Shown in pieces: positions 3,176 through 34,617 of a stretch of 39,617 bases of DNA (position 1 is the stretch's first letter; every line of letters begins with the position of its first letter). The stretch is from a virus. Its lineage: Duplodnaviria; Heunggongvirae; Uroviricota; Caudoviricetes. The notes beneath the pieces were generated by a model, which searched no databases, was not told the DNA's origin, and worked only from the letters and a program-made list of their open reading frames with translations. A program made the position numbers and the translations under genes. The DNA is taken from the IMG/VR virus record IMGVR_UViG_2703718858_000001, positions 1 through 39,617 of that record; one strand, given 5' to 3'.

Positions 3176-5338
3176 TTAAGCGCTGAAACCGCCGACTCTA
3201 ACTTTTAGCGTAGAGAGATCAACATTAACAGTTATGTTTAATACACCACTCCCCGCTGAAATAGAGAATAAGCGCCGTCCGCCTGACGTTCCGCCCCCCG
3301 CCGGTGGAGTGGTATCGAGTTCACCTGTGATCGATATTGAAATGGTACCCTCACGGTTAGCAACGAGTAGCTCTAAACATTCAGCCCAGGTGTTTTGTGC
3401 AGAAGACCAAGCATCGATAAGGATTCTCTGCGTCGTTCTGTTTGGTATTGCGATGGATTTGACTTCACCTGTATTTACCAGACCTTGAAAACGAGTTCCG
3501 TAATCTATCCAGCTAATGCTATAACCTGCATTTGCTGCAGGGTCTTGAGAGGTATACCAGGTCTTGGTTCTCACGCCAGTATGACCGATTGTCAGTAGAG
3601 GACGAGCAAATTGATCTCGATGAATGTATGCATTATCTCTGATCCCGTTGCTCTGCAGATCAATATCTGCAGCACGTGGATTAGGGAAAGTCGCTTTTCC
3701 ACCAACATCAAAAACATCATAATGATTTGCAACTGCAGGAATCCATCCGTTCCTGTCCAGATTTCTAAAGAAATCCTCGAAAGCCAGCCAGTATGATTGC
3801 TGATGACCTAAAAGGTTAGGGTGAACAGTCTGTATTTCAGGGGTCCGGTCAAATAATGCCGTTTCACCATATTTAGCAACAGCATCAAACCAGTATTTTT
3901 CCACATCGATAAGCACGCAACCCATTTCTACAGCGATTTTCCTGATCGCATCGTTTCCTCGAAGGAAGCGGACACCTGCTTGAATATTTACCCCATTCCA
4001 CTCAAACGTGACATTTGAGTTTGCGGCAGATGGTATAATGTTATTATCAGAGACTGGGGCCGGAGAAGATGAAGGCCATATTTGAGAAATTCCAGCCGGC
4101 ATGCTCCAGCTATATTCAGAAATATTCGGATGAGGTGTGGTTGTTAGCACAACATCCCCGCCGGCCTCCCTGACTAAATTAATAGCATTTCGAAGGCGCT
4201 GTTTAAATCCGTTTTCATTGAATGTTTGCCCGGCATTATATTGTGCGGTAGGAAAATCATTCATTCCATATATAAACAAAGCAATATCAGGATATATTCC
4301 TTCAGCAACAACTTCAGGCCATTGGTTAACAATAAAATTATTTATCGTTGAACCATTAACAGATTTGTTTGTGAAGTTAATGGGATAAATACGCTGCTTA
4401 TTTAGCGTATCGTTCATATACTCAAAAAATTTAGCAACTGGTGCCTGTGTTGCTGGATCAGGAAGCGTAGCACCAACCCCAACAGAAGAACCAAACCCAT
4501 AGAGTCGAAATAAGTTCTGATAGCCAGAAACCCCATGCCGATAAGCTGTTAATTTATTGACGAAATTTGGGAAAAGGGCCTGTGATGATCCAGACGCAGC
4601 ACGAATAGAAGCCTCTACCGTTCTTCCTGTTTCCGTAGCAACTAAGCCAGCACCGTCTTTTGATGCTAGCTTGATTGCCAAATCTGCCGTTTCAGTTTGC
4701 CCTGCAATCGGAACAGGATCCCCCTGGTCATTGAATCCAATCAGCATATTTGCTCTGGCTCGTACAGATGCCATGATTCCTACCTGACTTTCCGGAACTC
4801 GCAAAGTTCGCTGGAAAAGACCATCTGCATGATGAGTGCTGTCATTGTCTCCCGAGTCCACATAAGATTTTGTTGCTGCATCCTGTGCCTGTGACGGGTC
4901 ACGCAGATTACGAATGCGGTTGTTGAGTGCGTCGTAATAGTTCGCGATGAACGACGGCTTACGCAGCGCCAGGCGGAGAAAGCTGAAGCACTGCTGGATA
5001 AGCATGGTCAGCTTGTCGAACGCATCCTCATGTACCTCTGCGAAAAATTTCCCCTGGTTACGCAGATCAGTCTCCTGGGTAACAGGCAAGTCACGTGAGA
5101 TAGAGATTTGCCATCCGTTGGCCAGAGGTGACATCAACACAATGCTCCCACCTGAATAGCTTCCCGCCCCGGTAACGGAGTAATCGGTATCCAGAGTAAG
5201 TACCGTAATATTTTCGTTAAGGTCAGCAACCTGTACTGTCAGATCTGACTTCTTGAAAATACGAAACTTGTACGGGAAAGATGTGGTAACGCCGTTACCA
5301 GTGTATTCGTTGTGGTCAACTTCGGTTGAGACCGTCAT
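3176..5338 (-). CDS. Tailspike/tail fibre with T7 gp17-like N-terminal adaptor domain and SGNH-hydrolase-like central region
   Basis: N-terminus MTVSTEVDHNEYTGNGVTTSFPY...LDTDY resembles podovirus fibre attachment domain; GFGSS, GMND and HPN motifs resemble SGNH blocks I, III, V; GGAGA SD. Confidence 0.75.
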   Translation of the reverse strand: MTVSTEVDHNEYTGNGVTTSFPYKFRIFKKSDLTVQVADLNENITVLTLDTDYSVTGAGSYSGGSIVLMSPLANGWQISISRDLPVTQETDLRNQGKFFAEVHEDAFDKLTMLIQQCFSFLRLALRKPSFIANYYDALNNRIRNLRDPSQAQDAATKSYVDSGDNDSTHHADGLFQRTLRVPESQVGIMASVRARANMLIGFNDQGDPVPIAGQTETADLAIKLASKDGAGLVATETGRTVEASIRAASGSSQALFPNFVNKLTAYRHGVSGYQNLFRLYGFGSSVGVGATLPDPATQAPVAKFFEYMNDTLNKQRIYPINFTNKSVNGSTINNFIVNQWPEVVAEGIYPDIALFIYGMNDFPTAQYNAGQTFNENGFKQRLRNAINLVREAGGDVVLTTTPHPNISEYSWSMPAGISQIWPSSSPAPVSDNNIIPSAANSNVTFEWNGVNIQAGVRFLRGNDAIRKIAVEMGCVLIDVEKYWFDAVAKYGETALFDRTPEIQTVHPNLLGHQQSYWLAFEDFFRNLDRNGWIPAVANHYDVFDVGGKATFPNPRAADIDLQSNGIRDNAYIHRDQFARPLLTIGHTGVRTKTWYTSQDPAANAGYSISWIDYGTRFQGLVNTGEVKSIAIPNRTTQRILIDAWSSAQNTWAECLELLVANREGTISISITGELDTTPPAGGGTSGGRRLFSISAGSGVLNITVNVDLSTLKVRVGGFSA

Positions 5339-5441: not shown

Positions 5442-5458
5442 ATTACCTTTATGGTAAT
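5442..5458. promoter_or_regulatory. 17-bp palindromic operator ATTACC-TTTAT-GGTAAT
   Basis: Perfect inverted repeat; same motif recurs at OL, OR and other promoters in the window. Confidence 0.6.
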
Positions 5459-5496
5459 TTGCAAAACGTGCTGGATAGCAAACAAATTATTTGATA

Positions 5497-5512
5497 CTGT
5501 ATAAATATACAG
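5497..5512 (+). promoter_or_regulatory. LexA (SOS) box CTGTATAAATATACAG
   Basis: CTGT-N8-ACAG with AT-only core; flanks TA...TT extend the 20-mer match; ends 21 bp upstream of ATG 5534. Confidence 0.7.
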
Positions 5513-5533
5513 TTATTGCATGGAGAAGATAAG

Positions 5534-5791
5534 ATGCAGCGGTATCACTATCCACTGGAAGACGGATTTACCGAAAGGATTCACACGCCGGGAGGCGTCA
5601 GGTCACTGGTGGAGGGATCGCACTTGATGAAATTACTCCGGGATCTCGATAAGGATGGATTTAATGTCGATGGCCCACTTGCCGAACTGACTGCACTGAT
5701 TAACTACGTCACCAGCTCACAGATGTCTATGCAGGATCTGCAAACACATCTCGACTATTGTGCCGAACAATTACGAAAACAAACCCGGTAA
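5534..5791 (+). CDS. Small antirepressor-domain protein (paralog of Bro-N antirepressor C-terminus), putatively SOS-regulated
   Basis: ATG 5534 with GGAGAAG SD; 85 aa; aligns with C-terminal ~70 aa of 6940-7650 protein (IH.P.GV..L.E.S.LM.LL..L..DG..V.G..AELT...Y......D.QTH..Y). Confidence 0.6.
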   Translation: MQRYHYPLEDGFTERIHTPGGVRSLVEGSHLMKLLRDLDKDGFNVDGPLAELTALINYVTSSQMSMQDLQTHLDYCAEQLRKQTR

Positions 5792-5797
5792 ATTTAA

Positions 5798-5822
5798 AGG
5801 CCGCAAGAGCGGCCTATCGTTT
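5798..5822. terminator. Hairpin terminator between convergent genes
   Basis: AGGCCGC-AAGA-GCGGCCT stem-loop followed by T-rich tract. Confidence 0.5.
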
Positions 5823-6542
5823 CGCTTTGTGCTCATCCCAGCACGTTTTGCACCATGCCATTAAGCCGTCCGCATTTTGATTATTAGGGTAAAAGCTGGT
5901 TCGTTTTCTGCGGACATTACAAATTGGGCACCACTTCATATGGCGTGTATTCTTTGGGCCATCGAGACACCTTGCACACCACTTAGTCAATCCATCTGGA
6001 TTTTTTGACGATTTCCTGAATTTTTCATATGGAAGGTTTATTCTGCATCGCAAGCACTGCTTGCTACCACTTGAAACTCTGTTAGCTGATTCTTCTTTTG
6101 GCGGCGATACAGAAGGTATTCTTGCTGGCTCTGATACTGCCTGAGGTGCTTTTTTAGATGACTGAGACGATATGTCATCACCAGGGAATCTTCCATGATA
6201 TGCCGGACGCGTTGACACTCCAGGTGGAAGCTCAGCTGTAAACGGCTTTGGCTGAATCAGTTGCCTCTCTTTTGCTAACTCCTGCTGTTTATAATATGTC
6301 TGGATTACCGCACTATCATAAGCAGGAGGTGCGGAAATATCAGGCGCATTACCTCCAGTTTTTTGAAACTGAGTAGAGGTGTGTTCTATCACCTGTGTAC
6401 GATTAATCGTTATCTCCCCATCTTCGGTCTTTATCGTTTTGTTATGATTAACGACCGTACGATCAGAGATCTTAGTCTTGTTCTGGTTGATAACGTAAAT
6501 AATCACCGCAACCACACCAACAACTATCCAGAAAACTTCCAT
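5814..6542 (-). CDS. Membrane-anchored protein with C-terminal tandem zinc-ribbon (CxxC...WCxxC x2)
   Basis: N-terminal TM helix, Pro/Ser-rich linker, two repeats of a DGL-x2-WC-x2-C motif; GAGGAA SD; operator 6562-6578 just upstream. Confidence 0.65.
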   Translation of the reverse strand: MEVFWIVVGVVAVIIYVINQNKTKISDRTVVNHNKTIKTEDGEITINRTQVIEHTSTQFQKTGGNAPDISAPPAYDSAVIQTYYKQQELAKERQLIQPKPFTAELPPGVSTRPAYHGRFPGDDISSQSSKKAPQAVSEPARIPSVSPPKEESANRVSSGSKQCLRCRINLPYEKFRKSSKNPDGLTKWCARCLDGPKNTRHMKWCPICNVRRKRTSFYPNNQNADGLMAWCKTCWDEHKAKR

Positions 6543-6561: not shown

Positions 6562-6578
6562 ATTACCTTAAAGGTAAT
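6562..6578. promoter_or_regulatory. Operator ATTACC-TTAAA-GGTAAT
   Basis: Perfect palindrome in divergent promoter region between 5814-6542 and ant. Confidence 0.6.
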
Positions 6579-6654
6579 ATCTTGCTTTCAGGTGATCAAG
6601 CGTTAAACGTAATCAACCAAATGCGGTTGATTTTAATATTTATCCGCGCTTATC

Positions 6655-6671
6655 ATTACCTTTGCGGTAAA
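6655..6671. promoter_or_regulatory. Operator ATTACC-TTTGC-GGTAAA
   Basis: One mismatch from the palindrome; second site of divergent region. Confidence 0.5.
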
Positions 6672-6689
6672 TTTACATCGCACTCCTCT

Positions 6690-6783
6690 TGTGCCATAGT
6701 AATCGGGCACTGGCAAAATCCAGTGCCGGGATTGGCGTCCCGGGTTACTAAGTGGCGCATACCACGCCAGACGTGGTTTTTTT
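6690..6783 (+). ncRNA. Candidate small RNA / structured leader (three stem-loops ending in intrinsic terminator)
   Basis: Consecutive hairpins plus ACCACG-CCAGA-CGTGGT followed by T7 at 6761-6783; contains CTAAGTGG identical to ant SD region and complementary to leader octamer 6849-6856. Confidence 0.3.
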
Positions 6784-6939
6784 ATGCGTTAAGCACAGCT
6801 ATATCCGAATTATGGTGGGCTGGGCAGGGGTCCGAAAGGACACCGGTACCACTTAGGCCGGCACGCCAACCTTGTCCAGTTCACCACCAGTAATTGGCGT
6901 TGCGGTGGTGATTAAAATCACTAAGTGGAGATAACCACC

Positions 6940-7650
6940 ATGGCTAATGCTCAAACTGCCATCTTCAAATTTGAATCTGTTAACCCTATCCGTTCCATCA
7001 TTATCGATGGCCAACCATGGTTTGTAGCCCAAGACGTTTGTAGTGCGCTGCGTATCCAAAACGTCACCCAAGCACTTGAAAAACTGGATGATGATGAAAG
7101 GTCTATGTTCAACATAGGGCATGAACATCGTGCAATTTTTGACAGCCGAGTAAAAGAGATCAACATCATCTCCGAGTCAGGCCTCTACACACTGATCCTC
7201 CGCTGCCGCGACGCAGTGACACCAGGCACTATCCCCTACCGCTTTCGTAAATGGGTTACAGGTGAGGTTCTTCCTCAGATCCGCCGCACCGGAAGTTACA
7301 TTAAAAACTCGCTCCCGCAGGAAGAACGCATAAAGATGGTTGCCGACCAGGTTGCAAACGCCACAGCATCAGCAGTGATGCAGGCGATGAAGATAGAGAA
7401 CAAAACCTACAGTGCCCCGCTGAAGCCCGGCTACCGCAGCCTGATTCATTCGCCGTCTGGTGTTCTCGGCCTGACGGAGAACTCACTGCTGATGAATTTG
7501 CTGAACCAGTTACAGGAAGACGGGCATGACGTATCGGGCGCAGCGGCGGAACTGACCACCATGTTCTGCTACATCGTCGGTGTGAGCAAATGCCTGCGTG
7601 ATATCCAGACGCACGCGGAGTACATCAACGACAAAGCAGGGTTCTTCTGA
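6940..7650 (+). CDS. Antirepressor, Bro-N domain protein with C-terminal domain shared with 5534-5791
   Basis: N-terminus FKFESVNPIRSIIIDGQPWFVAQDV...GLYTLILRCRD...FRKWVTGEVLPQIRRTGSY matches Bro-N pattern; ATG 6940 preferred over GTG 6925. Confidence 0.75.
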   Translation: MANAQTAIFKFESVNPIRSIIIDGQPWFVAQDVCSALRIQNVTQALEKLDDDERSMFNIGHEHRAIFDSRVKEINIISESGLYTLILRCRDAVTPGTIPYRFRKWVTGEVLPQIRRTGSYIKNSLPQEERIKMVADQVANATASAVMQAMKIENKTYSAPLKPGYRSLIHSPSGVLGLTENSLLMNLLNQLQEDGHDVSGAAAELTTMFCYIVGVSKCLRDIQTHAEYINDKAGFF

Positions 7651-7724
7651 CAGGCGGTGGCACAGGGATGTGCCTTTAAATAATTCTGTACAGATTGCAG
7701 GTGAATAGCTTACTATTACCTCAC

Positions 7725-7741
7725 GGGTGATCCATAGCGAT
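7725..7741. promoter_or_regulatory. Degenerate operator ATTACC-TCACG-GGTGAT
   Basis: One mismatch in right half-site; upstream of leader ORF and cargo gene. Confidence 0.35.
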
Positions 7742-7819: not shown

Positions 7820-7842
7820 CGGGGCCATTAGGCCCCGTTTTC
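7820..7842 (+). terminator. Rho-independent terminator/attenuator
   Basis: CGGGGCC-ATTA-GGCCCCG stem followed by TTTTC; ends 7 nt before GGAG SD of next gene. Confidence 0.65.
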
Positions 7843-7859: not shown

Positions 7860-8399
7860 GTGTTAAGTGAAGAAATGCAATTTGCCATGGCCGTGGCTCA
7901 AATAGTAAGTGCAGTCGCGGTTTCGCTTGGCTTGTTCATAGCTATCGCTACTATTATTTATAATGTAAATACAGCGAGAAAAGTACACACTTCAGTATTC
8001 CTTGGTGAAAGCAGGTTTGATGTAGATTATAAGAAAGGCCTATCTACTATGCGCCGCATTCACGAATCGAACAAATCATTCCGCTCTTATATGTATCCAA
8101 GCAATGGGCAGGCTGATCTTACGGATGAAGAAAAGACAGAGAAGAGAGAAATAATTTACTGTCTAGGTTTCTACGAACGCATGGCTGTGAGCGTGAAGCG
8201 GAAAACTTATGATGAGACCATGATTAAGGAAGTATTTTACAGCTCCGTTGTAAATAACTATCAGATTGCGCTACCTCTTATACAAGCCATTAGAGAAAAA
8301 GAAAACATAAACACATATTTTAAAGAATATGAATGGTTGGCCACACGATGGAAGGATTGTCCATTGAAGGATAAATCCCCGTGGTACAAGTTTTGGTAA
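7860..8399 (+). CDS. Low-GC cargo protein, N-terminal TM anchor plus ~150-aa cytoplasmic domain; function unknown (exclusion/defence candidate)
   Basis: Sampled GC 28-47% versus about 50% in flanks; GTG 7860 with GGAG SD (alternative ATG 7875); hydrophobic N-terminus. Confidence 0.6.
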   Translation: MLSEEMQFAMAVAQIVSAVAVSLGLFIAIATIIYNVNTARKVHTSVFLGESRFDVDYKKGLSTMRRIHESNKSFRSYMYPSNGQADLTDEEKTEKREIIYCLGFYERMAVSVKRKTYDETMIKEVFYSSVVNNYQIALPLIQAIREKENINTYFKEYEWLATRWKDCPLKDKSPWYKFW

Positions 8400-25240: not shown

Positions 25241-25257
25241 ATTACCTTTCAGGTAAC
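25241..25257. promoter_or_regulatory. Operator ATTACC-TTTCA-GGTAAC upstream of head operon
   Basis: Same palindrome family; TTGACA hexamer at 25220-25225 nearby. Confidence 0.5.
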
Positions 25258-25578: not shown

Positions 25579-25655
25579 GTGGCATTAGCTCAGTTGGACA
25601 GAGCAACCGCCTTCTAAGCGGTTGGTCGCAGGTTCGAATCCTGCATGCCACGCCA
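25579..25655 (+). tRNA. tRNA-Arg (anticodon UCU), phage-encoded
   Basis: Perfect 7-bp acceptor stem GTGGCAT/ATGCCAC, U8, D-arm GCTC..GAGC with GG, anticodon stem ACCGC/GCGGT, loop CTTCTAA, T-arm GCAGG-TTCGAAT-CCTGC, discriminator G and CCA. Confidence 0.9.
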
Positions 25656-27776: not shown

Positions 27777-28369
27777 TGATTGCCATCCTGACGTTCTTTG
27801 AGTCGCTTCCTGGCTGCTGCTATGCGATCAGCAATTGTCACATTCACATTAACATCCAGGCGTTCTTTGAATGCGTTGACGTCGACGTGCTTACCAATCA
27901 GTTCGAGGTTCTTCACCTTGTCAGGCCATTTAATTTTTTTGAGGATTGTCTCTATCGAATCCTCGTTCATGTTCATGATGGTCGATGACAGATCAAAGCC
28001 GCTAAGCGTAGTGCGCCAGATTTTCGGCCACTCGCGGATTGGCTTAAGGCTCCCATCGTCGTTGAGGATATCAATCACGTCCATCTGGTCGATCTCCACC
28101 AGGCGCATGAGAACGTAATCAGCACTGACGCGCATTCGTTTGTTGCGCTCCTCCATCAACTCGGCAATCCGTTTTTGAATGCGTTCATCGCGCATCATGA
28201 CACTGGCTTTAACTGCCGCTGTATTTGGGGAGAATCCTGCATTAATCGCTGCCTGAGTCTGGTTTTCAGGCGTTTTGATGTATGACTGGCAATAAGCCTC
28301 CTGCATTGCTGTTAGTGGCTTAAATTGCGTTGATTTGCGTTTATAGGTTTTAGGTTCAGCAGGCATCAT
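27773..28369 (-). CDS. Terminase small subunit
   Basis: Directly upstream of TerL; ATG 28369 chosen over TTG 28447. Confidence 0.65.
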   Translation of the reverse strand: MMPAEPKTYKRKSTQFKPLTAMQEAYCQSYIKTPENQTQAAINAGFSPNTAAVKASVMMRDERIQKRIAELMEERNKRMRVSADYVLMRLVEIDQMDVIDILNDDGSLKPIREWPKIWRTTLSGFDLSSTIMNMNEDSIETILKKIKWPDKVKNLELIGKHVDVNAFKERLDVNVNVTIADRIAAARKRLKERQDGNQ

Positions 28370-28376
28370 AACCACC

Positions 28377-28409
28377 GTGGTAATAGTTACCGTTGTGGTA
28401 ATAGTACCA
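28377..28409. repeat. Tandem 15-bp repeats GTGGTAATAGTTACC / GTGGTAATAGTACCA upstream of terminase
   Basis: Two direct copies 18 bp apart, each containing GGTAA-N3-TTACC (operator half-sites in opposite arrangement). Confidence 0.5.
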
Positions 28410-31432: not shown

Positions 31433-31449
31433 TTTACCCCTGAGGTAAT
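31433..31449. promoter_or_regulatory. Operator TTTACC-CCTGA-GGTAAT overlapping RBS of 31083-31430
   Basis: Palindrome family; spacer contains AGGGG SD on coding strand. Confidence 0.45.
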
Positions 31450-31494
31450 TAAAAACCACATAAGACACGAAATCAATAGATCTTAGAACATTTT

Positions 31495-31511
31495 ATTACC
31501 TAGCAGGTAAT
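31495..31511. promoter_or_regulatory. Operator ATTACC-TAGCA-GGTAAT
   Basis: Perfect palindrome just downstream of terminator after P-like gene. Confidence 0.55.
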
Positions 31512-33441: not shown

Positions 33442-33458
33442 ATTACCTTTGAGGTACG
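33442..33458. promoter_or_regulatory. Degenerate operator ATTACC-TTTGA-GGTACG (possible PRE-like region)
   Basis: Between tR1-like hairpin and cII-position gene. Confidence 0.3.
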
Positions 33459-33778: not shown

Positions 33779-33843
33779 TTCACCCATAAGGTAACAAAAA
33801 TCAAGGATAGTTACCTATGAGGTGCATTTACCTGTTGGGTAAT
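33779..33843. promoter_or_regulatory. OR region: three operators (33779-33795, 33810-33826, 33827-33843)
   Basis: TTCACC-CATAA-GGTAAC, GTTACC-TATGA-GGTGCA, TTTACC-TGTTG-GGTAAT between divergent cro-like and repressor genes. Confidence 0.6.
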
Positions 33844-33897: not shown

Positions 33898-34482
33898 ATG
33901 AAAAGTATCCAGGACGTCCGCAGGCAAAATCTCAACGACTTGATCGACCGTGAATTCAATGGTGTTCAGACGCGGATGGCAGAAAAACTTGGAACTCAGG
34001 CAAATCTGGTAAACCGCTGGGCTCTTGGCAAGAAGGTTATCGGCGACCAGGTTGCGCGAAAAATTGAAGCTGCCGCCAATAAACCCCGTAACTGGCTTGA
34101 TATCGATCGCTCGCTTTCTCAGGAAGGTTTTCAGCCTGTCGGCCCAAGCGACATTGGTCAGCTGGCGGCTCACAACCTGGAACGCTGGATGAGCGAAAGC
34201 CGCGACCTTTCAACACAGGGAAAACTTCACCGCGCATCCGGCGTCGCCCAGGTGACAATCAGCCGCCTGTTAAACAATGAGGTCAGCGTTTCCATTTCCA
34301 CCCTGGAGAATGTTGCATCCGCATTCGGGCGTCACGGATATGAACTACTGATTCACCCGCACGACCCTGCGACTATCAACTATGACCGCTCGCGCTACGC
34401 ATTGTTACCCGAAACCGAGAAAGCAAAGATCGAAAGTTACATTGAATTTGTCATCAACCAGAACGAAAAAAACAAACAATAA
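33898..34482 (+). CDS. Immunity repressor, tandem HTH, no S24 autocleavage domain
   Basis: Two HTH-like segments; no Ser-Lys peptidase motifs; flanked by operator clusters and followed by terminator. Confidence 0.7.
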   Translation: MKSIQDVRRQNLNDLIDREFNGVQTRMAEKLGTQANLVNRWALGKKVIGDQVARKIEAAANKPRNWLDIDRSLSQEGFQPVGPSDIGQLAAHNLERWMSESRDLSTQGKLHRASGVAQVTISRLLNNEVSVSISTLENVASAFGRHGYELLIHPHDPATINYDRSRYALLPETEKAKIESYIEFVINQNEKNKQ

Positions 34483-34538: not shown

Positions 34539-34617
34539 ATTACCTAATGGGTAATTTTTTTAACTCATATCTATTGACATCAAACCAGATACGCATAATT
34601 ATTACCTCAACGGTAAC
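34539..34617 (+). promoter_or_regulatory. OL/PL region: operators 34539-34555 and 34601-34617 flanking -35 TTGACA (34574-34579)
   Basis: ATTACC-TAATG-GGTAAT and ATTACC-TCAAC-GGTAAC; second site overlaps the -10 region. Confidence 0.6.

Follow-up and report, generated by a model that had tools for sequence, protein, structure and literature searches.

A probable P1 immI-type RNA module controlling the antirepressor gene of an epsilon15-like phage

Small RNAs in the control of phage antirepressors

Several phages place an antirepressor gene under the control of a small RNA. In the immI region of P1, an icd gene lies between the RNA target site b2 and the antirepressor gene ant, and the mechanism runs through icd translation and Rho-dependent polarity. 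As annotated in NC_005856, immI is made up of an operator, promoter(s), the sites a1 and b1, the c4 RNA (which contains b' and a'), the sites a2 and b2, and a start codon. The Gifsy-1 locus of Salmonella, IsrK-orf45 (STnc1160)-anrP, has the same arrangement as the locus described here, a short terminated RNA followed by read-through with an antirepressor gene downstream. Two base pairs between the regions corresponding to a1 and a', G28-C162 and G31-C159, have been proven there by compensatory mutation, an RNA of about 80 nt is processed from the C4 region, and IsrK acting in trans, by pairing with the same region, activates translation of the antirepressor 139-fold (PMC4825925). Activation in trans by IsrK and its binding of Hfq are known from the Gifsy-1 experiments only, and the report on that locus, Hershko-Shalev et al. 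2016, makes no mention of P1 c4, RNase P or Citron (PMC4825925).

Two further systems invite comparison. The immunity region of satellite phage P4 (CI RNA, seqA and seqC) is by its description similar, as a processed leader RNA pairs with repeated sites up- and downstream of itself, but its reported effect is transcription termination on replication genes and not control of an antirepressor ribosome-binding site (RBS). The sar/ant system of P22 also uses a small RNA to control an antirepressor, a likeness in outcome only between non-homologous systems.

The DNA considered here, referred to as the window, is the 39,617-nt virus record IMGVR_UViG_2703718858_000001, which represents a 39.6-kb epsilon15-like podovirus (Uetakevirus), whereas P1 is a plasmid prophage. 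Its ant gene encodes a Bro-N protein. The biological role of such a protein is illustrated by the related Uetakevirus vB_EcoP_ZX5, where overexpression of the Bro-N antirepressor encoded at the same position promotes lytic growth (PMC9782041). We consider positions 6655-6942 of the window to be an RNA control module of the P1 immI type for ant, with a probability of roughly 0.85.

Layout of the ant leader

The initial annotation of this region had described a structured leader in which repeated octamers sequester the ant RBS. This is supported as essentially right; its comparison with P22 sar alone fails, and a second triple of sites, a1/a'/a2, had been missed. The features of the region are as follows.

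6562-6578, no strand assigned: operator-like palindrome ATTACCTTAAAGGTAAT in the divergent promoter region, a perfect match to ATTACC-N5-GGTAAT
6655-6671, no strand assigned: operator-like palindrome ATTACCTTTGCGGTAAA, abutting the -35 element of the IsrK promoter
6672-6700, plus strand: sigma-70 promoter-like site with 9 of 12 matches and TG present; predicted start near 6707
6707-6783, plus strand: IsrK / c4-a1b1 leader RNA (Rfam isrK, RF01394)
6732-6738, plus strand: a1, TTGGCGT, in IsrK hairpin 2, centred on its loop and complementary to a'
6748-6755, plus strand: b1, CTAAGTGG, in the IsrK linker and complementary to b'
6808-6891, plus strand: C4 antisense RNA (Rfam C4, RF01695); predicted mature RNA about 6814-6889
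6849-6856, plus strand: b', CCACTTAG, in the loop of C4 hairpin 2 (anti-SD octamer)
6863-6869, plus strand: a', ACGCCAA, in the single-stranded C4 junction
6894-6900, plus strand: a2, TTGGCGT, 5 nt past the C4 tail
6921-6928, plus strand: b2, CTAAGTGG, overlapping the ant Shine-Dalgarno sequence GGAG (6927-6930)
6940-7650, plus strand: ant, the regulated gene, encoding a Bro-N antirepressor of 236 aa (Pfam Bro-N, E 1e-19)

The promoter-like site is made up of a -35 element, TTTACA (6672-6677), a 17-bp spacer and an extended -10 element, TGcCATAGT (6692-6700). Almost every one of about 80 related loci has a -35/-10 pair that ends about 7 nt before the first nucleotide of IsrK, while their upstream sequences are unrelated in other respects. 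Counted from the predicted start at 6707, the leader comes to about 233 nt and not the 280 bp or so first assigned to it, with 6562-6706 being promoter and operator DNA. The consensus ATTACC-N5-GGTAAT has 16 matches in the window at up to 2 mismatches, compared with 1.0 expected, and of the matches compared with the list of open reading frames (ORFs) the majority fall between ORFs. The palindrome at 6562-6578 may function as an operator. The palindrome at 6655-6671, which is kept at the same position in epsilon15-like relatives, may likewise mediate regulation by a repressor, and as a putative operator it has a geometry similar to that of Oc4 (Op51) at the c4 promoters of P1.

The short RNA predicted from this promoter is a homologue of IsrK. 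The Rfam isrK model is matched over all of its 77 positions (1-77 of 77; 67.7 bits, cut-off 50), while the overlapping c4-a1b1 model (RF03163) scores just under its cut-off (44.1 bits compared with 46.7; E 5e-10). The RNA is made up of hairpin 1 (6707-6726), hairpin 2 (6727-6742), a linker and an intrinsic terminator identified by a terminator scan (stem 6761-6777, T-run to 6783). The three stem-loops ending in a terminator had thus been described correctly, although the predicted length of the RNA is 77 nt instead of about 90. Hairpin 1 is 100% paired among the related loci, with compensatory changes in 4 of its 7 pairs, and both the promoter-like and the terminator-like sites occupy conserved positions. 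From viral contigs, the window and phiV10 among them, 124 matches to the IsrK motif were collected. A C4 homologue lies downstream in 92 of these, a number reached in a second search round with a profile after 58 copies had been found by single-sequence nhmmer; the matches without a downstream C4 are mostly chance or truncated ones. An attenuation scheme, in which GUGG of b1 and CCAC of the terminator form an antiterminator released by C4, was dropped because this complementarity is missing in relatives such as phiV10.

The C4 RNA is matched by its Rfam model from end to end (positions 1-87 of 87) at 60.9 bits, with a cut-off of 45. Its fold consists of a terminal helix (6813-6829 with 6870-6886), hairpin 1 (6830-6841), hairpin 2 (6843-6861) and an unpaired ACCA tail. 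Among the related loci the terminal helix is 99.2% paired, 12 of its 17 pairs being changed on both sides, and the figure for hairpin 2 is 100%. None of 500 shuffled controls reached the observed value, and slid registers were 36-47% paired. C4 is probably cut out of a longer transcript by RNase P, as happens in P1, and its sequence shows the determinants for this, a helix of 17 bp or more with unpaired ACCA (6886-6889) after it. Its mature ends are placed by analogy with the annotated ends of P1 c4.

It is also conceivable that the anti-SD octamer simply folds back on the Shine-Dalgarno sequence within one unprocessed mRNA, so that no C4 acting in trans is involved. Every site does lie on one predicted transcript, and a loop-loop contact in cis is compatible with the sequence analysis. 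However, C4 folds as a separate unit in both the minimum free energy (MFE) and centroid structures, and b', located in one of its hairpin loops, does not pair with b2. The conserved terminal helix with its ACCA tail and many compensatory changes is what is expected for an excised RNA, and homologous stable processed RNAs of about 77-80 nt exist in P1 (annotated as misc_RNA) and Gifsy-1 (STnc1160). A purely cis hairpin is therefore improbable. The same folds refine the initial annotation, whose stem-loops are present but whose anti-SD octamer does not belong to a simple leader hairpin. Sequestration of the ant RBS by this octamer is still supported, given the scores of C4 and isrK above their Rfam thresholds, and the octamer is then carried in a hairpin loop of C4, an RNA that folds on its own and is probably excised.

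The assignment of ant itself is strengthened by its match to PHROG 130, 'anti-repressor Ant' (E 8e-57). Elsewhere, the genes downstream of C4 encode antirepressors of the Bro-N, Rha, KilAC and ORF6N types. No leader ORF of the icd or orf45 type is present between C4/b2 and ant in the window, where 11 nt separate b2 from the ant ATG at 6940, so that b2 sits directly on the ant Shine-Dalgarno sequence. In other loci, ORFs of 62-81 aa are present between b2 and the position of the antirepressor.

The resemblance to P1/P7 c4 proposed initially has held up in detail, as the layout is that of the annotated a1/b1-c4-a2/b2 of P1. The order of elements is the same, the recognition sites have the same lengths (7 and 8 nt), and the overall spacing is nearly identical, with b2 being 11 nt from the start codon here and 10 nt in P1. 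Both c4 of P1/P7 and the RNA described here belong to one Rfam family, have b2 placed over a Shine-Dalgarno sequence, possess a terminal helix with an unpaired CC(A) tail and regulate an antirepressor. The site sequences differ, being TTGACAG and GTTAGTGA in P1 and TTGGCGT and CTAAGTGG here, and the icd gene of P1 has no counterpart in the window.

Control of the P22 sar type, by a short RNA that is transcribed from the other strand and covers the ant RBS, had been suggested as a further parallel, and that analogy is all that speaks for it. No promoter-like site was seen on the minus strand between 6400 and 8000, the only minus-strand candidates being at 6291-6343, and all conserved structure and co-variation lies on the plus strand, that of ant. 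With no opposite-strand promoter near the ant start, the P22 sar comparison does not apply, and we give this type of control next to no credence.

Recognition sites and their co-variation

The octamer CTAAGTGG occurs on the plus strand in the two places where it had been reported, as does its exact complement CCACTTAG, and the copy at b2 runs into the GGAG of ant 9 nt before the ATG, in keeping with its proposed role as the ant Shine-Dalgarno sequence. The window contains 4 octamer matches against 0.83 expected, a number reached in 1 of 100 shuffles. The count by itself is weak evidence, and the comparative test is decisive. The fourth copy of CTAAGTGG (5979-5986, minus strand, inside a 242-aa gene) was rejected as a site, because TTGGCGT does not occur near it (closest copies at 2503 and at 6732) and a window should contain about one octamer copy by chance.

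Within the predicted fold, the two C4 sites are accessible, with unpaired probabilities of 0.99 for a' and 0.85 for b' (also written CCACUUAG). Other features count against the model. On the target side, a2 is predicted to be mostly paired in the window (unpaired probability 0.09), and the predicted fold already has the Shine-Dalgarno sequence and AUG of ant inside a local hairpin. The recognition helices are short, at 7 and 8 bp, although the site duplexes amount to about -13 kcal/mol each. When C4 was cofolded with IsrK or with the ant leader, the net gain was about 0 kcal/mol, as loop-loop contacts are beyond the reach of nested-structure prediction; local duplex energies and unpaired probabilities were used instead. 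The a2 site lies between the inverted repeats CACCACC (6882-6888) and GGTGGTG (6904-6910), and a hairpin of at least 6 bp flanks it in 98.5% of 67 loci.

The a and b sequences vary among the roughly 80 related phage loci, and all three copies of each change together. There are 15 a-types and about 49 b-types, whose three copies switch jointly while the two kinds of site assort independently, CTAAGTGG being found with TTGGCGT or with TTGGTCT. The a1-a' helix is 98.7% paired across 54 loci, and 5 of its 7 pairs vary on both sides. For a'-a2 the figure is 95.2%, and compensatory changes affect 6 of the 7 pairs. A column-based count for b'-b2 found 43% paired only, because MAFFT leaves the hypervariable b segments out of register, and support for this pairing comes from an alignment-free test alone, in which the sites of a locus are compared with those of other loci. 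In 61 non-redundant loci, the C4 loop forms mean helices of 8.3 and 9.2 bp with its own b1 and b2, compared with 4.8 and 5.5 bp when loci are permuted (z about 24). Such own-versus-permuted tests gave z = 13-25 overall and 23.7 for b'-b2, where a helix of at least 7 bp is formed by 95% of 61 representative loci with their own site and by 17% of mismatched locus pairs. The family matches, the anatomy of the sites and this three-way co-variation are observed directly, and the repeated octamers are part of a known phage circuit made up of the C4 antisense RNA, an IsrK-type decoy leader and the ant RBS.

Predicted silencing of ant and its place among known systems

By analogy with P1 and Gifsy-1, which supply the expected RNA processing, translational block and direction of the IsrK effect, the module may work as follows. 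Transcription would start near 6707 from the sigma-70 promoter flanked by the operator-like palindrome, and the intrinsic terminator at 6761-6783 probably stops most transcripts to yield the 77-nt IsrK/c4-a1b1 RNA. Read-through transcripts would carry C4, which with its long terminal helix and ACCA tail is probably released by RNase P. The start point, the efficiency of termination and the processing of C4 in this phage are what we infer from these features. The single-stranded sites b' (in a hairpin loop) and a' (in the junction) would then pair with b2 and a2 of the ant leader, and since b2 overlaps the Shine-Dalgarno sequence, ant translation would be blocked. Since a1 and b1 of IsrK reproduce the target sites exactly, IsrK would compete for C4 both in cis, as part of the precursor, and in trans, as a short RNA, in agreement with the competing terminated RNA first envisaged. 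Synthesis of Ant would be set by the balance of IsrK and C4.

Alternatively, pairing by C4 may act mainly on elongation, through premature termination or Rho-dependent polarity as with the CI RNA of P4, and not on ribosome binding. In P1, blocked icd translation results in Rho-dependent termination before ant. C4 is placed in Rfam clan CL00128, and IsrK has been described as a structural homologue of P4 SeqA, and CI RNA as working through termination at seqA and seqC (PMC4825925). A transcriptional fusion in Gifsy-1 was also raised 8-fold with IsrK, but the translational effect in that system, at 139-fold, was much greater (PMC4825925). The stretch from a2/b2 to the ant start codon contains no intrinsic terminator-like site, the closest one on the plus strand being at 7119-7133, inside ant. 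Furthermore, b2 overlaps the Shine-Dalgarno sequence in the window, and its complement ends in GGA in most of about 80 loci. We leave this mode of action a small chance.

The exact model proposed for Gifsy-1 would differ from a block at the ant RBS in another way. There, a1-a' pairing locks the read-through mRNA, and short IsrK opens the fold so that a leader ORF (orf45) is translated, with the antirepressor being reached by coupling only. Several observations fit this model. The a1-a' helix is conserved, and by position it corresponds to the proven Gifsy-1 pairs; an AUG at 6812, at the 5' end of C4, is also conserved and agrees with the Gifsy-1 transcript position to within 1 nt; and 4 of 81 loci have an ORF of 43-46 codons whose stop overlaps the downstream start codon. 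The conservation of this AUG is, however, accounted for by the terminal helix of C4, to which it belongs. In Gifsy-1 the orf45 stop overlaps the antirepressor start (AUGA), whereas the ORF from ATG 6812 has 14 codons and stops without overlap at a TAG within b', leaving 86 nt up to the ant ATG, which makes coupling implausible in the window. The leader ORF is not conserved, given its range from 3 to 416 codons across the 81 loci, and according to the Gifsy-1 authors orf45 itself is conserved in nucleotide sequence but variable in amino-acid sequence (PMC4825925). The exact Gifsy-1 model is very unlikely for this phage, and leader-peptide coupling of the orf45 or icd kind was rejected for the window.

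The isrK model also matches the a1/b1 leader of P1 (E 6e-6), and sequence comparison indicates that this leader and the IsrK of Gifsy-1 are probably the same element and that the 'orf45' of Gifsy-1 coincides with a C4 RNA, as the corresponding region of the window clearly does. It is possible, although we propose it tentatively, that IsrK-type leaders are dedicated mimics of the C4 target (sponges), and that P1 c4-a1b1, Gifsy-1 IsrK/orf45(STnc1160) and this module are one system under separate literature names, with a two-site address whose diversification has given rise to at least 15 a-types and about 49 b-types.

The region is a known module in a copy that was until now unannotated, and it is ordinary rather than new. 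GenBank and RefSeq entries list only coding genes there, and at megablast-level similarity copies of the module are present in 457 of 5,426 complete E. coli genomes, mostly at 80-90% identity. Current understanding of the mechanism is unchanged by it. What is gained is a function for a 290-bp region without annotated genes and an explanation of the probable route by which a Bro-N antirepressor is silenced. If the tentative unification is true, these phages would hold a large natural collection of RNA immunity specificities orthogonal to one another, acting here directly on ant without a leader ORF. The co-ordinated site triples may be of interest for studies of heteroimmunity and for the design of orthogonal RNA regulators.

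IsrK and C4 RNAs in the ant leader

The window is the genome of an epsilon15/phiV10-like podovirus (Uetakevirus), with phage HEMP4 (98%) and TL-2011b (84%) as its nearest records. A gene for a protein of 236 aa starts with the ATG at 6940; Pfam places the product in Bro-N (E 1e-19) and PHROG in 'anti-repressor Ant' (E 8e-57). As the initial annotation had stated, its leader contains the octamer CTAAGTGG twice, at 6748-6755 and 6921-6928, and the complement CCACTTAG at 6849-6856. The downstream copy continues into GGAG (6927-6930), the ant Shine-Dalgarno sequence, 9 nt before the start codon. The three successive hairpins it described were also recovered (6707-6726, 6727-6742 and 6761-6777), the series being closed by a T-run to 6783. 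Four copies of the octamer occur in the window versus 0.83 expected, and at least four were reached in 1 of 100 shuffles; this count is by itself only marginally unusual, so the case rests on family matches and on comparison with related loci.

With the curated Rfam cut-offs, the complete window gave three matches in total, two of them to the RNAs of the leader. Under a permissive scan, c4-a1b1 ('a1, b1 targets of C4 antisense RNA', RF03163) also appears at 6694-6746 (44.1 bits, cut-off 46.7, E 5e-10), overlapping the isrK match.

Rfam matches in the window and elements of the IsrK-C4 module
6672-6700: promoter-like site, TTTACA, 17 bp, TGcCATAGT, ending 7 nt before IsrK nucleotide 1
6707-6783, + strand: isrK, short terminated leader RNA (Rfam, 67.7 bits, cut-off 50, full length)
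6732-6738, + strand: a1, TTGGCGT, centred on the loop of IsrK hairpin 2
6748-6755, + strand: b1, CTAAGTGG in the single-stranded IsrK linker
6808-6891, + strand: C4 antisense RNA (Rfam, 60.9 bits, cut-off 45, full length)
6813-6829 with 6870-6886: C4 terminal helix, 17 bp, then unpaired ACCA (6886-6889)
Loop of the second hairpin in the C4 fold: b', CCACUUAG
6863-6869, + strand: a', ACGCCAA, single-stranded junction of C4
6894-6900, + strand: a2, TTGGCGT, beginning 5 nt past the C4 tail
6921-6928, + strand: b2, CTAAGTGG on the ant Shine-Dalgarno sequence
25579-25655: tRNA-Arg, anticodon TCT, the third Rfam match

The recognition sites are of two kinds: the octamer set that had been proposed, and a second triple, a1/a'/a2, that had been overlooked. 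Both C4 sites are predicted to be accessible (unpaired probability 0.99 for a' and 0.85 for b'), and each site duplex has a computed energy of about -13 kcal/mol. A -35/-10 pair lies at the equivalent position in nearly all related loci, the upstream DNA being otherwise unrelated. The P22 sar analogy, in which an RNA from the opposite strand would control ant, did not hold up: no promoter for such an RNA was found on the minus strand between 6400 and 8000, and we consider this arrangement highly improbable. The initial interpretation was otherwise essentially correct.

Inverted repeats CACCACC and GGTGGTG (6882-6910) enclose a2, the first made up of the last five bases of the 3' strand of the C4 terminal helix and the first two tail bases. 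The hairpin they form is an alternative to that helix, reaches 6 bp or more in 98.5% of 67 loci and can also be seen in P1; it may couple the excision of C4 to the exposure of a2.

Co-variation among related loci

Viral contigs were scanned for the conserved IsrK motif, and the matches were pooled with the window and phiV10 (124 in all). A C4 homologue lies downstream in 92 of these, the remainder being mostly chance or truncated matches. Among 81 non-identical loci there are 15 a-types and about 49 b-types, and almost every locus carries one type at all three places. In an alignment-free test on 61 representative loci, the longest helix formed by a locus's own sites was compared with that formed when targets were randomly reassigned. 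Mean lengths were 8.3 versus 4.8 bp for b'-b1 (z = 24.6), 9.2 versus 5.5 bp for b'-b2 (z = 23.7), 7.0 versus 5.2 bp for a'-a1 (z = 13.7) and 7.0 versus 5.4 bp for a'-a2 (z = 12.9). In a MAFFT alignment of 54 loci, pairing was 98.7% for a1-a' (both sides changed in 5 of 7 pairs), 95.2% for a'-a2 (6 of 7) and 99.2% for the C4 terminal helix (12 of 17), falling to 36-47% in a slid register. The b'-b2 column count was poor (43% paired) because the hypervariable b segments are out of register in the alignment, and support for this pairing was taken from the alignment-free test. A hairpin acting purely in cis is unlikely, since C4 folds as a self-contained domain with strong co-variation.

The a- and b-types assort independently: CTAAGTGG is combined with TTGGCGT in the window or TTGGTCT in two other loci (L026, L115), and the b-type CTAAAAGG is found with three different a-types. 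Because a and b sites are intermixed along the module (a1, b1, b', a', a2, b2), a switch of type requires co-ordinated changes at three separate places. One viral contig, L045, has two complete IsrK-C4 modules (2422-2667 and 3565-3815) about 1.1 kb apart, with differing a and b sequences. The pair extending C4 hairpin 2 (6842, 6862) is A.C in the window and G.U in its nearest relatives (L051, L099, L111); both sides have changed, with no standard pair restored.

Comparison with phage P1 and Gifsy-1

The P1 GenBank record lists operator Oc4 first, followed by two c4 promoters, a1 (7 nt), b1 (8 nt), a 77-nt c4 RNA, a2, b2 and finally the start codon of icd. Order and site lengths are identical in the window and spacing almost so, with an a1-b1 gap of 9 nt (7 in P1), an a2-b2 gap of 20 (22 in P1) and 11 from b2 to the start codon (10 in P1). 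The Rfam isrK model matches the P1 a1/b1 leader, terminator hairpin included (35 bits, E 6e-6), and this sequence match indicates that IsrK and the P1 leader are one element. Unlike P1, the window lacks an icd-type gene, ant following directly after b2. In P1, in agreement with how the record is annotated, RNase P excises c4 from the transcript of the operon. The a' and b' segments of c4 base-pair to a2 and b2, so that translation from the first ribosome-binding site is blocked and Ant stays off.

In Gifsy-1, IsrK mutations G28A and G31A and downstream mutations C162U and C159U raise basal antirepressor translation, with partial mutual compensation; a translational fusion is activated 139-fold when the short IsrK RNA is provided in trans, the G31A mutant RNA loses target binding, and processing of the sequence downstream of IsrK yields STnc1160, a stable RNA of about 80 nt (PMC4825925). 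Mapped by position, with a 1-nt numbering offset, these four nucleotides would correspond to window positions 6734 and 6737 in a1 and 6867 and 6864 in a'. Family membership, anatomy and co-variation are documented by the sequences themselves, whereas the way the RNAs are processed, the block of translation and the sense in which IsrK acts are carried over from P1 and Gifsy-1. By this analogy, C4 most likely occupies a2 and b2/SD and represses ant. IsrK, which carries exact mimics of these targets, would most likely sequester C4 in cis and in trans, and the ratio of terminated IsrK to read-through C4 would then set Ant production. A P4-like action on transcription is improbable; the stretch from the target sites to the start codon of ant contains nothing resembling a terminator.

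The Gifsy-1 orf45 start corresponds to a conserved AUG at the C4 5' end, 6812 in the window, where the ORF has only 14 codons and ends within b', 86 nt before ant. ORFs from this AUG range from 3 to 416 codons across 81 loci, and an orf45-like overlap (a 43-46-codon ORF across C4 with its stop overlapping the next start codon) occurs in only 4 of them. The RNA helix therefore accounts for the conserved AUG, and coupling of ant translation to a leader ORF is unlikely in the window. Proteins encoded after C4 in other loci are Bro-N, Rha, Rha+KilAC and ORF6N, and about one-third of loci have a 62-81-aa ORF at the icd position, with no Pfam match. The leader-ORF feature is thus patchy across the family.

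Genomic setting and distribution

The palindrome ATTACC-N5-GGTAAT (up to 2 mismatches) occurs 16 times in the window versus 1.0 expected, a count reached by no shuffle. The majority of checked sites lie between ORFs, and several sit on either side of an HTH_3 repressor-like gene of 194 aa (33898-34482); from its sequence, the set looks like dispersed operators of one repressor, cf. C1 of P1.

ATTACC-N5-GGTAAT sites and genes flanking the module
5442-5458, 6562-6578, 6655-6671, 7715-7731, 25241-25257: palindrome sites
28368-28402, 31433-31511, 33442-33458, 33827-33843, 34539-34617: palindrome sites, continued
5814-6542, - strand: 242-aa gene, N-terminal hydrophobic segment, C-terminal Cys-rich repeats, PHROG 6762
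7860-8399: DUF4760 gene, downstream of ant

Upstream of the DUF4760 gene are the palindrome at 7715-7731 and, by eye, a TTTT preceded by a GC-rich inverted repeat (about 7821-7842). The 242-aa gene, which weakly matches endonuclease VII and Lar-like zinc motifs, sits between an 85-aa ORF (5534-5791) and IsrK; it is missing there in phiV10 and is thus probably an inserted accessory gene. Directly upstream of the 85-aa ORF is a perfect LexA-box-like TACTGTATAAATATACAGT (5495-5513), the sole copy in the window. The ORF shares 43% identity with the C-terminal 72 residues of Ant, both belonging to PHROG 450, and may encode an SOS-controlled small antirepressor, in which case the phage would have two separately regulated antirepressor routes.

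Both RNA families are already curated in Rfam, and how they work has been established in P1 and, in part, in Gifsy-1. The module is unannotated in phiV10 and in a RefSeq prophage 99.7% identical over the region, and a paper on the antirepressor of the related phage vB_EcoP_ZX5 nowhere mentions RNA control. The Gifsy-1 paper (PMC4825925) does not cite P1 c4, and a 2025 review treats IsrK and c4 as separate entries. Co-occurrence of the two RNAs ahead of a Bro-N gene has been described in APSE phages (PMC7313666). A similar copy is present in 457 of 5,426 complete E. coli genomes, and the IsrK-C4 module is widespread.
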